From Candidatus Iainarchaeum sp. (GTDB lineage: Archaea; B1Sed10-29; WALL01), in assembly GCA_023129115.1 (NCBI GenBank), contig JAGMCR010000018.1, positions 1 through 23,274 of the forward strand: DNA of 23,274 nt, in the 5' to 3' direction. Each line of letters opens with the position of its first letter. The first letter of the stretch is position 1. The notes under the pieces were generated by a model. It worked only from the letters and a program-made list of their open reading frames with translations. It searched no databases and had not been told where the DNA came from. Both the position numbers and the translations under genes were made by a program. Shown in pieces: positions 802-19,689 of this stretch.

Positions 802-3800
802 TTAAATCCTCTTTTCCCGCAGCCGCTTGTGCATTTCCTTGAGGTCATTGAGCTTGGCGAACCATCCCTGCCTGCGGCCGCCGAGGTCCTGGTAGCACTC
901 GTCTTCGTCGGGCTCTTTTGACCCCTTCTTTGGGACGGTCTTCTGCATTTTCGCGAACCCCTGCTTCTTTATCGACTTGTTCAGGTCTTTGATGTATTTG
1001 ATTTGGTCATTGCTCAGCGAGTGCAGGAACAGATTCTTGTTGTTGTGCACTGCAGTGGCTATCAGCGCGCGAATCCATGTCTCGCCCGTGGGGTGGGCAA
1101 GGCTGGTGTAGACTCCAAGTTCGTTGATGTGGCTTAGGGTGCCCCTGCCTCTGAGCTGGGTCATCTGTACTCTTGTCCTCTGCCCCTCATTGCTCTCAAG
1201 CGTTAGGATTGGCATTGCGTTTTCTGTGGCATTGACTTTGGCGTTTTCCTTGTACTCCCCCTCGGTGATTCTCAGGCACGAGCCGAGCGATGCATGGTTC
1301 CTGTCCAGCCCGAGGAATAGGCGATCCAGCCCCCTTAGCTTGTGCAGCGTTACCCCGACATCGCCCTTACCAACGTTCGTCTTTAGGTCAGAGAGCATTT
1401 TTGTTGTGTCCACGGCTTCGCCCAAACTCCTTTCAATGCCCTCGCTCCTTAGAGAACCCGACCGCCTTTTAATTCCCTTCAAGTGGTCCCTAATGCTTTC
1501 GAGGTCAGTGCCCGTCTTGATTCCTCCTTTAACAGCTTCCTTGAGGCCGTTGACGTGCCCTCTGAGCACTGTTCGCACGCTCTCCTTGCCGATTTTTTTC
1601 AGTTTTGATTCATCGCAGCCCGTTAGAACAAAGTCTATGTGGCCTTGCAGTGCCTTTGCTTGTGAGTCGAACGCCTCCTTGTTGAACCCCCCGCCACTCA
1701 GCGTTTCCTCGAAGTCAGGAACCTCAATTTCGGTGCCCTTGCCCTTGTTGTGCCCCAGGTTATTGATGAACTCTTCTGCCGCGTCCTCGCCGCCCTTAAG
1801 GTGAGCGGAAACAAGGCCTTTCGTGACGTCGTCGCCTTCCTCCCGGTGGTAGGCATACGTTAGCATTAGGTGGGTGTCAATGTCCTCTGTGTCGACGCCG
1901 AACTCCTTCCTGAACTCTGCCTTCTGCTTTTCCTTGGCCAGCCATGCTGCTTTCTTGCTCTTCGCAATCTTGTGGAATACAGCATAGTCCTTCTCGTCTT
2001 TCGGGAGGCGGTGGAAGGCAACCATGTCGCCGACCCCTTCCTTGCCCTCGTGCTCCTTCGCCTGCTCGAACCTCCTCAGCACGTTCTTGGAGCGGAACCC
2101 AACGATTGTGTCCAGCATCTCTTCCGCGCTCTTCCCTTCCACGTCCTTCTGTTTGAACCTCTTTGTGAGCTCCGCCCTCAGTGCCTCCTCGTCGGTTTCC
2201 ACGCCATGCTCTTCCCTCGCTTTTTCCACGAGCTTTTTCTTGAGCTCTTCCGCCATTCTCTTGACGTCGCTCTTCTTCTTCGGGATGACGTTGTTGGCGA
2301 TGCAGAACGCCAACAATGGCTTGTCTTTCTCCTTGAGCTTCGTGTGCAGGTCAAACTCCTTTGCTTTGGGCATCTTCATGTCCATCTGGGCCAGTTTGTA
2401 CCTCTCCTTGAACTCTTCCCAGAGCACGCTCCGGAAAAGCTCCCTGTCAGTCTTGTTGTTGGCGTCCGTCGCGGCTGTCTCGGGGATAAAGTCTTCGCTG
2501 TGCTCGAGCACGTCATACATGTTGTCAATGAAGTGGATTTCCTTTTCTGACTTCAGCACCTGTCCCGCGAAATCCGGGTCTACACTCCACTCCAGCAGGG
2601 CAGGCAGGGAGTCCTCTATGAATTTCTCAATCTTTTTGCCGGGGTACACCTCCATTATCTTGTGCGCTGCCCGCACCATGCGCTCCATGTCCTCAGGAGT
2701 CTTTGACTCGTAAGCTGCAGGCCGCAAGATATACTCGCCGAAGCCCTCTGTGCCAAGGGTTTCTGGCATCTCCCGCGTGAGCCTGTGCGCGGCTTCGCCC
2801 CACTCAGCCATCTGGGCGAGCCTTTTCTTTGCGTCCTTCACCCCCTTGAGCTTGTCCTCCATGACTATGGGGAGGAACTTCCTGCAAAAAGCGTTTATGT
2901 CGCCCCCTTTCGGGTGGTCTTGTATGAGCTTGTTCAATGCTACTACTTCTTCCACGCTTCTTGCTTTGTCTATGAGCTTTGGCATGCCAGCCCATACCAA
3001 TCGGTCCAGGTCCGCGTTTTTCGCGTTTTTTGGGTAGCTGCTCACGGTCTTGTTCACCGCCTCACCCATTGCCCTAAGTTCTTCTGCGTTGTTCGCTTTC
3101 CCGAGCATGGCACTGAGCGTGTATCCTATAAAGTGTTCTTGGGTGTTGGGGTCCTGGTACTTCCTTATGAGTTGGTACGCTGTCTTTCCCAACTCCCTTA
3201 TCTCTTCCGCGTTTTTTGCTGTTTTGGCTATATCTTTTAGGCACGCTGCAACGAACTCTTCCATGTACCCCTCCTTTGGATGGGTTCGTATGAGCTTGTC
3301 CACTTCCATGAGTTCTTCTGGTGTCGTCGTGTTTTTCATCACGTCCAAGAGGATGTCATTGAAGTCGCCTGTAGTCACGAGTCTTGTTTTCGTATAGGTC
3401 TGTATGATTTGGCTTGCTGCCCTTATTCTTTCCGTGCCGTTCGCTGCTTCGAGCATGTCTGGGAGAATCCCCTCTACAAAGCCACCTATGTCCCATTCCC
3501 TTGGGTAATCTCTTATGGCATCGCTCATTGCCCGCAGTTCTTCCACAGTCTTTGGCTTGTTGAGTATCTCTGTTGGAGTAAGTCGCATGAAGTGGTCTAC
3601 TGAGTCTATGATTCCTTCCGCATCTCTCTTGAACTCGGGGGCGGCTTGCGTGAGCTTCTTCCGGTACGTTTGTATGGCTTGGTTTATCGCGTGCAGCTCT
3701 TCCGGCGTCCTTGCCGCATCGATTATTTTCGGGAGAATATTCTCTCTTCGGTAGTAGAAGGCCTCCGGGGGGTGGTCAAGCACGAGCTGGTCGACCGCCT

Positions 3801-4266
3801 TGCCGAAGTCCAGCACTTCTTTCGCGTTCCCGGATTTTTCCAGTATTTCCGGAAGGGCTGTGTCTGCGAAGAAGCTCCCCGTACTTACCAAGAAATCCCC
3901 CTCATCTTGTGCAGCCGTGCTCACTATCTTCGCGTGCTTTGCGTACTCTTTTATGACCTGGTTCGCTGCACGTATCGCTGCTGCGTCCTTCGCGTTGATG
4001 ATTATGTCGCGGAAGACAGCTAGAGGGAAGGGTTCATCTGGGTCTTCGGGCACTGGGTAATCCGCCACCATCTGCTTTACTGCGCTGAAGAACTCCTCGT
4101 CCTCCAGCTTCTTCATTATCCTTCTCTTTTTGCCGAACAAGCCGATGAAGTTTTCTTCAACGAATTCCTTTACCAGCTTCCTCGGCACCTTCCCAAGAAG
4201 CTGTTTCCCCCGCGCCTTCTTCTTTGTTACACGGGTTTTCGCTTTTACCCCGCCCTTTTTCCCCAT
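802..4266 (-). CDS. Large orphan protein (about 1154 aa) with alpha-helical repeats of about 35-40 aa
   Basis: Long ORF; ATG at 4266 (MGKKGG) lies 32 nt from a TTTATAT box starting at 4298; recurrent F-x4-LP-x-hh-x2-A-x-[TN]-x-EEL-x-A...I-x2-[YH]P pattern. Confidence 0.85.
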   Translation of the reverse strand: MGKKGGVKAKTRVTKKKARGKQLLGKVPRKLVKEFVEENFIGLFGKKRRIMKKLEDEEFFSAVKQMVADYPVPEDPDEPFPLAVFRDIIINAKDAAAIRAANQVIKEYAKHAKIVSTAAQDEGDFLVSTGSFFADTALPEILEKSGNAKEVLDFGKAVDQLVLDHPPEAFYYRRENILPKIIDAARTPEELHAINQAIQTYRKKLTQAAPEFKRDAEGIIDSVDHFMRLTPTEILNKPKTVEELRAMSDAIRDYPREWDIGGFVEGILPDMLEAANGTERIRAASQIIQTYTKTRLVTTGDFNDILLDVMKNTTTPEELMEVDKLIRTHPKEGYMEEFVAACLKDIAKTAKNAEEIRELGKTAYQLIRKYQDPNTQEHFIGYTLSAMLGKANNAEELRAMGEAVNKTVSSYPKNAKNADLDRLVWAGMPKLIDKARSVEEVVALNKLIQDHPKGGDINAFCRKFLPIVMEDKLKGVKDAKKRLAQMAEWGEAAHRLTREMPETLGTEGFGEYILRPAAYESKTPEDMERMVRAAHKIMEVYPGKKIEKFIEDSLPALLEWSVDPDFAGQVLKSEKEIHFIDNMYDVLEHSEDFIPETAATDANNKTDRELFRSVLWEEFKERYKLAQMDMKMPKAKEFDLHTKLKEKDKPLLAFCIANNVIPKKKSDVKRMAEELKKKLVEKAREEHGVETDEEALRAELTKRFKQKDVEGKSAEEMLDTIVGFRSKNVLRRFEQAKEHEGKEGVGDMVAFHRLPKDEKDYAVFHKIAKSKKAAWLAKEKQKAEFRKEFGVDTEDIDTHLMLTYAYHREEGDDVTKGLVSAHLKGGEDAAEEFINNLGHNKGKGTEIEVPDFEETLSGGGFNKEAFDSQAKALQGHIDFVLTGCDESKLKKIGKESVRTVLRGHVNGLKEAVKGGIKTGTDLESIRDHLKGIKRRSGSLRSEGIERSLGEAVDTTKMLSDLKTNVGKGDVGVTLHKLRGLDRLFLGLDRNHASLGSCLRITEGEYKENAKVNATENAMPILTLESNEGQRTRVQMTQLRGRGTLSHINELGVYTSLAHPTGETWIRALIATAVHNNKNLFLHSLSNDQIKYIKDLNKSIKKQGFAKMQKTVPKKGSKEPDEDECYQDLGGRRQGWFAKLNDLKEMHKRLREKRI

Positions 4267-4309
4267 TGTAAGCAATTATGTTTTATCCGGAATATAAATC
4301 CACCTCCCG

Positions 4310-4348
4310 CGATTTTTCCTACGCTTTTTCTTCCGCCGTTTCGGCTTT
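4310..4348 (+). repeat. Direct repeat, copy 2; continues into an imperfect hairpin (4335-4393)
   Basis: cgatttttcctacgctttttcttccgccgtttcggcttt matches 51-88. Confidence 0.9.
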
Positions 4349-4515
4349 CTTAAGAATTTTCGCCTGCGGCTAAAATCCTAAGAGCCGAAAGGCTACAGAC
4401 ACGCTCCGTAAAAATTGCTTTGGAGGCCGTAAAAAATGAATGTCAAAACATACAGGCTTTGCCAAAACTCAAAAAGAAGACCCTTACAAACGGCTCCAGA
4501 AAGGGAGATTCCACG

Positions 4516-4546
4516 AAAACCTTTATAAACGGACCCATTCAGAATA
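4516..4546 (+). promoter_or_regulatory. BRE/TATA promoter of the infB operon
   Basis: aaaacctttataaacggacccattcagaata; 28/31 identical to the rps15 promoter at 15160-15190. Confidence 0.8.
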
Positions 4547-4620
4547 GTCTCCACCGTCCTCGGGGCAGGGCTGATTAAGTTCCCACCAAAGCCGCTGAGG
4601 GACAACGGAATTTTACACCG

Positions 4621-6426
4621 GTGATAAACACGATTAGACAACCGATTATCGTGGTCCTTGGACATTGATTGCAGCTCCGGCTACAATCGACCAAAAATGT
4701 TGACCACGGGAAAACGACGTTGTTAGATAAAATTAGGGACAGCGCTATAGCCACAGGAGAACCAGGAGCAATCACCCAGTCAATAGGCGCAAGCGTAATA
4801 CCAAAAAAAACCATCGAAGAAATCTGTGGAAAACAACTAGGGAAAATGGGTATTAAGTTAACAATCCCTGGGTTGCTCATAATCGATTCGCCTGGCCACG
4901 AGGCGTTCACCACCCTGCGGAAGAGGGGGGGAAGCATCGCGGATTTTGCGGTGCTGCTTGTGGATATTAACGAGGGGCTGCAGCCGCAGACACTGGAGAG
5001 CATGGAAATACTCAAGAGCTACAAGGTGCCGTTTGTTGTGGCGGCTAATAAGATTGACCGGTTGGAGGGGTGGTACACCGAAAAGGAGAACGCTCCCTTC
5101 CTCGAGACGATACAGCGGCAGAAGGACGACGTCAAGGAAAGGCTGGACAAAAAGATTTACGAGCTCGTCGGGGCATTGCACGAAAACGGTGGGTACAGTT
5201 CCGAGAGGTTCGACCGGGTTGACGACTTCACGCAGCAGGTCGTGATTGTGCCGACCAGCGGCAAGACAGGCGAGGGGATTCCAGAGCTATTGCTGTTCAT
5301 CGCCGGATTGACGCAGAAGTACATGGAGGACAAGCTCAAGACCGGCGACAAGCCAGCCAGGGGCACTGTTCTTGAAGTGAAGGAAGTCCAGGGGTTGGGG
5401 ACTACTATTGACGCGATTATTTACGACGGGGTATTGAGCGTCGGGGACACGATTGTGGTCGGCGGCAAGAACGGGCCGATTACCACAAAAGTGAGGGCGC
5501 TGCTCGAGCCGAAGCCATTACAGGAGATAAGGGACCCCAAGAAAAAGTTCGAGCACGTGCAGAGCGTGGTTGCGTCCGCAGGCGTGAAAATCAATGCGCC
5601 CGACCTGGACGAGGCAATGGCCGGGAGCACAGTCATGGTCGCGGAAGAACTCGAGGCTGCCCAGCAGAGCATCGCGGAAGAGCTCGAGGACGTCACGATA
5701 CGCAAGGAGAGCACTGGCGTCGTCGTCAAGACCGACTCGATTGGCTCGCTCGAGGCGATTGTGCGGCTGTTAGAAAAGCGCGGCATACCGCTGAAGAGCG
5801 CAGCCGTTGGGAACGTCACGAGGAAGGATGTTCTCGAGGCAGAGGCAGTGCACGGCAAGGACAGGTATTTGGGAGTGGTGTTCGCGTTCAACACGCCGGT
5901 CTTGAAAGAGGCTGAGGGAGAGGCGCTGGAGGCGGGGGTCACTGTCTTCGAGAGCCCGGTGGTCTACAAGCTTATTGAGGAGTACGACAAGTGGCATGGG
6001 AAGGAAAGGGAAGTTGAGAAAGAAGAGGCGCTGAAGAACTCACACTACCCCGTCAAGCTCGAGCTGCTGCCGGGCTACGTGTTCCGGTCCAGCAAGCCCG
6101 CCATAATCGGCGTGGAAATCGTGGACGGGATACTCAAGGTGCCGTGCCCACTCATGAACGAGCACGGCAAAAGGTGCGGGCGGGTGAAGGAGATACAGAA
6201 GGACAAGGAAAACGTCCAGACGGCAGAGGCCGGCGAGCGGGTGTCGATTTCGGTCACCGGCATAACCATCGGGAGGCAAGTCAACGAGGGCGACGTGCTC
6301 CTGACTAACATTCCTCTAAAGGAAATCCCCAGGCTGATGAACGAGGTAAAGCACGCTTCATTGCTTGCGGAAATAAAAAAGATAAAGAAAGAACGTAAAG
6401 AACCAACTTCAATCAAAGAGGTGTAG
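4621..6426 (+). CDS. infB: Translation initiation factor aIF5B (IF-2); predicted join(4621..4663,4697..6426), about 590 aa
   Basis: IRQPIIVVLGH + [53 protein letters not shown]; canonical position upstream of rps6e; exact start codon uncertain. Confidence 0.95.
4664..4696 (+). other. Candidate 33-nt BHB/BHL-type mRNA intron in infB
   Basis: In-frame TGA at 4666; central helix TTGG(4658-61)/CCAA(4691-94); bulges AC^A and AA^A; intron stem TTGATTG/CAATCGA; removal gives CTT GGA CAT GTT GAC CAC (LGHVDH). Confidence 0.8.
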
Positions 6427-19014: not shown

Positions 19015-19689
19015 ATGCGCCGAGTCCATACGGCAATTCCGGGGCTGGACAGGCTCCTCGAGGGCGGCTTCCCGGAGGGGTCGTCAGTCGTGGTGAGCGG
19101 GTCGCACGGCACCGGCAAGACCCTGCTTGGGCTGCAGTTCCTCTACGGCGGAGTGAAGGAGTACGGCGAGCCCGGCGTCCTGATACAGGTCGGCGGGTTC
19201 AGCGACACGCTGATGAGGTACGAGAACATGATGGGGTGGAACCTCGCGAAGCTCCAGGAAAAGGGAAAGCTCGTTATTTACTCGTTCAAGCCCAAGGACT
19301 ACGACAAGTTCGAGCCCACCAAGATACAGGGCGAAGTCCTTGGGAAGCTTAGGAACATAATCGTGCCCATGGGCACGAGAAGGGTCGTGATTGACTCCAT
19401 AACGCCACTCGCGGAAAGGATTGGCAACAAGGCGGACTACCGCCGCAGCCTCTACGAGACTGTGGAGTTCTTCAAGGAGAACGGCATAACGTCCATAATA
19501 CTCTCGGAAGACGGAGACGTCGAGAAGCACGTGTGCGACGGCGCCATAATCCTGCGGCAACTCGAGGAGCACAACGGCGAGTACAGGAAGCAGCTCCTGC
19601 TGTCCAAGATGCTCGCCACGAATTTCCCAATCGCGTGGTACCCAATCACAATAAGCGAGCGCGGGTTCTCGGTGCGGCCGTTTTTGTGA
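19015..19689 (+). CDS. KaiC/RAD55-like single-domain RecA-superfamily ATPase (alternative start 19006)
   Basis: TAIPGLDRLLEGGFP, Walker A GSHGTGKT, Walker B RVVIDS, CDGAIIL. Confidence 0.92.
   Translation: MRRVHTAIPGLDRLLEGGFPEGSSVVVSGSHGTGKTLLGLQFLYGGVKEYGEPGVLIQVGGFSDTLMRYENMMGWNLAKLQEKGKLVIYSFKPKDYDKFEPTKIQGEVLGKLRNIIVPMGTRRVVIDSITPLAERIGNKADYRRSLYETVEFFKENGITSIILSEDGDVEKHVCDGAIILRQLEEHNGEYRKQLLLSKMLATNFPIAWYPITISERGFSVRPFL

Follow-up and report, generated by a model that had tools for sequence, protein, structure and literature searches.

A probable tRNA-type mRNA intron in the P-loop codons of archaeal infB and its association with a LAGLIDADG-fold endonuclease cassette

The infB gene of an archaeon of the Candidatus Iainarchaeum lineage, which encodes translation initiation factor aIF5B, is interrupted within its P-loop codons by a 33-nt insert containing a stop codon. 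We interpret this insert as a spliced mRNA intron that was spread by homing and that probably shields the target site of the homing nuclease, and judge this full reading, on analysis of sequences, to be correct with a probability of about two in three. According to this reading, the pre-mRNA would fold into a bulge-helix-bulge (BHB) with a loose exon side, the tRNA endonuclease EndA would cut each bulge behind its second base, with RtcB then ligating the exons for synthesis of full-length aIF5B, as in the known pathway. The mobile unit would be a cassette consisting of a left element, a free-standing LAGLIDADG endonuclease gene, a promoter with leader, and a new 5' end of infB that carries the intron and replaces the resident one. 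By analogy with known homing systems, the nuclease would cut uninvaded infB at the conserved P-loop codons, repair would copy the cassette together with about 190 bases of the downstream exon, and the intron, by breaking the recognition site, would spare the invaded allele from re-cutting. In this genome the nuclease gene would later have been deleted, the intron staying behind.

Within the window (the whole stretch of DNA analysed, 23,274 nt), the frame from position 4621 reads VVLGH, stop, LQLRLQSTKN and VDHGKT, and the G1 motif is split. The motif of eif2g is uninterrupted. Both features had been pointed out in a first-pass annotation of the window, which proposed an intron spliced by the tRNA endonuclease, and its coordinates all hold. 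The features of the interrupted gene are as follows.

4621..4663, + strand: infB exon 1, with presumed start GTG at 4621
4658..4661, + strand: central helix (4 bp), 5' exon strand; bulge 4662-4664, predicted cut 4663^4664
4664..4696, + strand: BHB/BHL-type intron, 33 nt; stem 4665-4671 with 4684-4690, in-frame TGA at 4666-4668
4691..4697, + strand: central helix, 3' strand (4691-4694); bulge 4695-4697 on the 3' side, predicted cut 4696^4697
4697..6426, + strand: infB exon 2 (aIF5B), with Pfam domains GTP_EFTU, GTP_EFTU_D2, IF-2 and GTP_EFTU_D4

The spliced aIF5B is 590 aa long, and the GTP_EFTU match of the downstream frame alone starts at model position 12. The position of the infB start (window 4620-4635) is not certain. 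GTG 4621 shares bases with GGTGA, which resembles a ribosome-binding site, and translation may instead begin at the non-standard codon ATT 4633; in several relatives, too, no ATG lies nearby.

The register of the insert was examined by making all in-frame deletions of 3-60 nt with starts at 4641-4705. The motif was restored free of stops only by 33-nt deletions starting at 4664, 4665 or 4666, and one of these three, 4664-4696, is the deletion given by the EndA rule. The claim that this rule gives back the G1 motif exactly was thus confirmed. The RNA fold proposed in the annotation turned out to be the minimum-energy structure; the fold of 4651-4707 has z = -3.5, and none of 200 shuffles was equally stable. 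A 4-bp central helix lies between two 3-nt bulges, with the intron stem right after the 5' bulge, and this geometry was found at offset 0 alone among offsets -4 to +4. When the insert was shuffled within its exon context, equal geometry at any of 5 registers appeared in 0 of 20,000 trials. The structure is the relaxed BHB form. Its exon-side helix, already described as relaxed, carries a 1x7 internal loop in the minimum-energy fold (1x3 in the alleles L047, L048 and L051), and it departs from the strict canonical form (hBHBh') in that the in-register exon-helix pairs have probability 0. A group I or group II intron does not fit, the insert being 33 nt against a ribozyme core of several hundred bases. 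Within 4200-4800, no Rfam match at gathering score was found, and a promoter scan was uninformative.

BHB motifs were also scanned over the whole genome. Owing to unusual codon usage in the sequences on either side of it, the infB intron escaped detection under the first two sets of filters; the third recovered both infB and an insert in rnhB. Among the 142 rows of the third scan, of which the candidates were judged by eye and not by homology, a restored conserved motif was recognised only for infB and rnhB, and no third intron was recognised. As BHB-like geometry is this common in the genome, the case rests on the coincidence of a homology-defined insert with the cut register.

Relatives were then compared. 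Of 31 genomes of the phylum, 26 matched the N-terminal query, one of them being cut by a contig end. Among the 25 readable infB genes, two carry an intron and 23, including that of the same-genus G001, do not. In G003 (same family, other genus), a different 32-nt frameshifting insert lies after the H-G codons of the same motif, about 10 exon bases downstream of the junction in the window, and it also obeys the cut rule. Directly upstream of infB in G003 is a 447-aa ORF (L041:5388-6731), of which the product P0002 gave a weak Pfam LAGLIDADG_3 match (E = 0.004, score 17.8 vs 22.5 cut-off). This protein has 8 relatives at 31-43%, with E151 and D281 invariant in the family, and the best fold matches of its model (pLDDT 88.5) are LAGLIDADG homing endonucleases (E down to 3e-7). 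P0002 is a putative homing endonuclease of the LAGLIDADG fold.

A metagenome scan with the alignment of this nuclease family gave 10 loci. All seven with downstream DNA run straight into infB, as does G003, and five of the seven carry an insert at exactly the junction of the window. Since two of these five are identical, four distinct alleles remain, with lengths of 32, 30, 30 and 29 nt. Every one frameshifts or contains a stop, and all are restored by the cut rule. For the five same-site alleles including the window, 39 of 40 cells are paired, and 5 of 8 pairs are changed on both sides, including a swap from U-A to C-G in a central-helix pair that joins exon to intron. This covariation score comes from five sequences, which also supplied the structure and in which homology of the stems is uncertain; it was reached by 0 of 500 shuffles, and slid registers pair 7.5-52.5%. 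The alignment of relatives recommended in the first-pass annotation gave a patchy presence and absence, with pairing kept by compensatory changes. A search for the same-site pattern, which would miss inserts of the L045 and G003 types, gave one chance match in 401 genomes of another DPANN phylum (an unrelated membrane-protein ORF) and nine matches in viral contigs, none of them in infB; no nuclease relative was found in the viral contigs. In a protein search for truncated infB, 119 of 120 among the matches listed were intact. One Woesearchaeota aIF5B marked as partial (P0125) starts exactly at VDHGKT, which may reflect truncation at the end of a contig or a further interrupted allele.

The alleles bear on the possibility that the protein is made without splicing, by ribosomes that read through the stop, bypass the insert or initiate at TTG 4669. 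In the window the insert length is divisible by three and the stop is followed in frame by a TTG codon, and the type of EndA, described below, is also in favour of this possibility. Three of the five other alleles (32, 29 and 32 nt), however, are frameshifting. Read-through would bring 11 extra residues into the P-loop at a TGA codon that is the commonest stop in the genome (259 of 568 long ORFs), an internal start would lose the first 11 positions of the GTP_EFTU model, and neither route explains the bulge register. Expression in the unspliced form is thus very improbable. Reassignment of TGA was also rejected.

Genes for both EndA and RtcB are present in the genome. EndA, encoded on the minus strand of C14 at about 23070-23580, is one subunit of about 169 aa with a gap-free alignment to the alpha4 enzyme of M. 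jannaschii (1a79). No second or hidden subunit was found in this genome; among five relatives searched, EndA was single-copy in four and none was found in the fifth. No recognisable specificity loop was detected by alignment, and a 5-residue insert of the ARMAN-2 enzyme, which by sequence probably represents loop L3, is missing. The determination of EndA type, put forward in the annotation as a check, thus turned out unfavourable: the enzyme is not of a recognisable broad-specificity type. Relaxed motifs are cut well only by looped (alpha-beta)2 and epsilon2 enzymes and poorly by enzymes without the specificity loop (Kaneta 2018; PMC5829648), and the role of EndA specificity loops is supported by PMC12397907. 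The alpha4-like EndA is the main result against our reading, because the exon-side helix of the intron is relaxed. On the other hand, a loop-less enzyme must nevertheless remove such an intron in vivo, and loop L3 is present in some DPANN alpha4 enzymes (Kaneta 2018; PMC5829648). The proposal of an EndA-spliced mRNA intron is well supported by the comparative evidence of recurrence, register and compensatory pairs, and splicing of the infB insert from mRNA as a tRNA-type intron is considered very likely.

Some other observations were made on the RNA-processing genes. The open frame of rtcB (G000:C4:41556-44339, +), 994 codons long, includes an in-frame insertion of about 1.5 kb, probably an intein. 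Two intron-bearing tRNA genes were missed by ARAGORN and identified by eye: tRNA-Lys(UUU) at G000:C13 ~1400-1530 (+), with a strict BHB intron at the non-canonical position 30/31, and tRNA-Ala(CGC) at G000:C18 ~19060-19190 (-), with an intron at 37/38.

The insert is present in DNA beyond the first assembly. A 595-base contig assembled in that study from a second sample spans 4533-5127 with 0 differences and 0 gaps, this support coming from assembled contigs and not from raw reads. The first-pass annotation had also raised the question of a second, intact infB with this copy decaying; the copy described here is the only infB found in the genome, which is 88.6% complete. An assembly error, or a dead gene accompanied by a working infB in unassembled DNA, would find room in that incompleteness and in the use of contigs only. 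Against these stand the identical insert of the second sample, the recurrence of an insert at one junction in distant lineages and the position of infB in its conserved operon. Exon 2, moreover, has an open frame of 575 codons, the first 234 of which show 77-78% identity to the nearest relative. Neither event is at all likely. The closest named infB match is L036 (77%), titled Nanobdellati (DPANN) archaeon.

Linkage between intron and nuclease was observed repeatedly. All five distinct intron alleles outside this genome (four same-site alleles and that of G003) sit behind a nuclease gene, which stands free beside the intron-bearing gene in G003 and in five of the seven metagenome loci and is represented by a relic only in the window. 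Beside the 23 intronless infB genes of the phylum, no strong match to the nuclease family was found, G003 alone being strong. An orphan 5' stub of infB ending at the L/G/H codons was detected upstream of the nuclease gene at 5 of 11 loci, three of them distinct. The stub appears to mark the insertion point, at which the cassette would be inserted together with a new gene start. Both intron sites and the stub breakpoints lie within about 15 bases.

The intron might instead be spliced and yet merely ride along with the cassette, or be gained separately in each lineage, with no protection against the nuclease. Two of the seven nuclease loci have a downstream infB without intron, and the partnership is therefore not obligatory; the G003 cassette has its intron at another site, and the intron stems of different alleles share little sequence. 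The regular position of all five outside alleles behind a nuclease, the score of 0 of 23 among intronless genes and the clustering of intron sites and breakpoints argue against such independence. The two intronless nuclease loci also differ in their G1 codons, although a nuclease-free tree neighbour differs likewise and this is also a lineage trait. Altogether we regard an unprotective passenger intron as unlikely, and a homing partnership of intron and nuclease, given splicing, as likely from the combined analysis.

No intact copy of the nuclease gene was found in this genome by tblastn with the G003 protein. The family profile gave a weak match (E = 1.4e-5) to a 425-codon ORF between two gatD-like frames (L059; G000:C19:52290-53567). 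In the window, the following traces of a cassette were recognised around the intron.

4297..4469, + strand: putative left end of the homing cassette, a hairpin-rich element 86% identical to L041:5068-5240, just 5' of the G003 endonuclease gene
4496..4547, + strand: putative remnant of the final codons of the nuclease gene, now deleted, with a probable TATA box at 4522-4529
4699..4881, + strand: probable co-converted (foreign) tract of exon 2, marked by low G+C at third positions and an identity drop

The segment 4496-4648 is 80% identical to L041:6677-6832, which covers the last nuclease codons, promoter and leader, this 3' similarity overlapping a promoter and leader that are common to the whole family anyway. 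The probable TATA box was assigned by conservation in alignment A1. Between the two cassette ends, about 1,436 bases of G003 are replaced by 26 in the window, which points to a cassette whose nuclease gene was deleted with both ends kept. The core of the left element is 78% identical to DNA before an endonuclease-like gene at rnhB of this genome. Among the loci compared, the element was found only there and in G003; it was not found in the longer stretches of G001, G004 or G005. The first-pass annotation was correct as to the insert and its structure, and it missed the deleted homing-endonuclease cassette upstream, by which the presence of the intron would be explained.

Elsewhere in the window, a 35-base piece at 54-88 is 97% identical to the start of the left element. 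A 1157-aa ORF at 802-4275 (-), divergent from infB, contains helical repeats and has no significant match in Pfam, and repeated ends around it in the view of the whole contig suggest an insertion or rearrangement adjoining infB.

Among the 55 codons at 4717-4881, downstream of the intron, 21 end in G or C, compared with 390 of the remaining 514, and a drop this large was found in 2 of 213 long ORFs. Identity to the same-genus G001 is 64% in the same segment and 85% in the next 145 codons, and where A-H is found in all five of the nearest readable relatives, the window has G-H. The boundary of this tract was chosen by eye; in composition it fits a co-conversion tract, probably acquired with the cassette. 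In the exon 2 tree of 33 rows, this genome (G000) is sister to the intronless G001 at 100/99. In a 26-row tree, which left out L015, L021, L023, L028, L029, L030 and L039, a single clade of four same-site hosts was rejected (p-AU 2.4e-5), and the intron label requires 4 changes, a number not below that typical of shuffled labels; L048 was too short for either tree. The trees and the low-G+C tract, with its boundary set by eye, support horizontal spread and co-conversion of the flanking exon. Many losses from an ancient intron might also give this distribution, but would not account for the foreign tract.

In the first-pass annotation the intron was explained as a regulatory link, by which aIF5B synthesis is tied to tRNA splicing, with a competing helix as the switch. 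This helix indeed exists in the computed ensemble, where its outer three pairs account for about 34% (-22.7 vs -23.6 kcal/mol), a strict EndA might cut slowly enough to hold expression down, and removal of a 5'-UTR BHB intron in Haloferax seems to matter for expression (PMC7714728). Its pairs, however, are complete (5/5) in only three of the five same-site alleles, are reduced to 3/5 in the other two and to 2/5 in G003, and follow largely from the palindromic exon junction. With 23 of 25 infB genes of the phylum intronless, a link to tRNA splicing is not supported, and the signs of recent horizontal arrival stand against it as well. Because the competing helix is incomplete and the distribution patchy, a regulatory switch is quite improbable as the reason for the intron.

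A second mRNA intron, of 52 nt, is present in rnhB of the same genome (L040; G000:C18:27715-27766, -). It obeys the cut rule, and its layout is alike, rnhB lying behind a 340-aa nuclease-like gene with the same left element.

Outside the mobile insert, the leader of infB carries a conserved element.

4558..4600, + strand: conserved 5' leader hairpin of infB, found at 22 of the 25 loci of the phylum in which the 5' end is readable

The phylum loci concerned are L007-L031, and no Rfam match was found for the hairpin. Its 16-base short form (L009, L014, L019) equals a hairpin of 16S rRNA in three of five 16S loci of relatives (L073-L075), which we take to be helix 8. By sequence, the leader hairpin is a candidate rRNA mimic that may autoregulate the infB-rps6e-eif2g operon. 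Neither infB nor S6e occurs in the available text of the r-leader paper PMC7247131.

New in these results are the infB intron alleles directly behind a LAGLIDADG-fold endonuclease gene and the deletion relic of a cassette in the window. The genomes together suggest a plausible life cycle, from the empty site to a cassette with nuclease and intron, and then to deletion of the nuclease. In the literature searched, cbf5 is the only archaeal gene with such an intron in its coding sequence, and infB encodes a universal, essential translation factor. The rule that relaxed motifs need looped or two-subunit EndA enzymes is also challenged. Gene callers truncate infB here, and split genes of this kind may pass as assembly frameshifts; in a preprint, 325 split-gene events were counted across 208 complete genomes of Nanobdellota, and introns are not named as the cause in its available text. 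As a wider idea, to which we give an even chance, archaeal mRNA mini-introns would be immunity tags of free-standing LAGLIDADG cassettes. Such a cassette would invade conserved early codons of an essential gene, supply a new promoter and start, and break its own target with a 30-base hairpin that a plain alpha4 EndA removes; it would jump between DPANN lineages and later lose the nuclease, leaving an orphan intron as here. If so, a route is given for the origin of introns like that of cbf5, and relaxed motifs would need no looped EndA. The question of how such introns arise is made testable.

The nearest known case is the intron of cbf5 pre-mRNA in Desulfurococcales and Sulfolobales, of which the origin was called unclear (Yokobori 2009; PMC2738675). 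Both introns are short (16-44 nt in cbf5, 29-33 in infB), BHB-like and often relaxed, have their cut sites (predicted in infB) behind the second of the three bulge bases, interrupt a functionally critical codon and are too short to encode a nuclease. The infB intron differs in its host gene, in its DPANN host with a single-subunit alpha4-like EndA instead of a hetero-oligomeric enzyme, and in being patchy, apparently horizontally spread and linked to a free-standing endonuclease. Splicing of cbf5 has been demonstrated, whereas the infB intron is known from sequence. In 2020, cbf5 was given as the only earlier mRNA case, to which a 5'-UTR intron was added (PMC7714728): that of Haloferax HVO_1309, likewise an mRNA substrate of EndA, differs from infB in its non-coding position, and no link to mobility is reported in the text available. 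mRNA introns appear only in the references of the available part of Sakai 2022 (PMC8784108). Neither an infB intron nor the pairing of an archaeal mini-intron with a free-standing nuclease was found in print, the search covering main texts and few subscription papers, while cases could also be tabulated in supplements. Sequence look-ups likewise gave nothing for either the nuclease or the infB region of the window.

Three systems resemble the proposed cassette. The archaeal rRNA BHB introns of I-DmoI and I-Tsp061I, both fold matches of the G003 model, share with infB the splicing machinery and the nuclease fold (PMC2738675), but there the nuclease gene lies inside an intron of the rRNA gene and here outside, upstream of a protein-coding gene. 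In fungal mitochondria, free-standing homing endonuclease genes lie by duplicated pieces of atp9 and atp6 (PMC7487136); as with infB, insertion of the nuclease gene goes along with duplication of one end of the host gene and leaves a stub, but the genomes are organellar and the described cases have no mini-intron. In collaborative homing, F-CphI stands beside a group I intron in psbA of cyanophage S-PM2 (PMC6083498), and as in infB a free-standing nuclease gene adjoins a conserved gene with an intron in the presumed target site. The infB case differs in its cellular archaeal chromosome, in a 30-nt intron spliced by proteins instead of a ribozyme, in the LAGLIDADG fold, in a cassette that would bring a replacement gene start, and in protection that is predicted only. 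In its spread the infB intron looks like collaborative homing, and we do not assign it as a member of that class.
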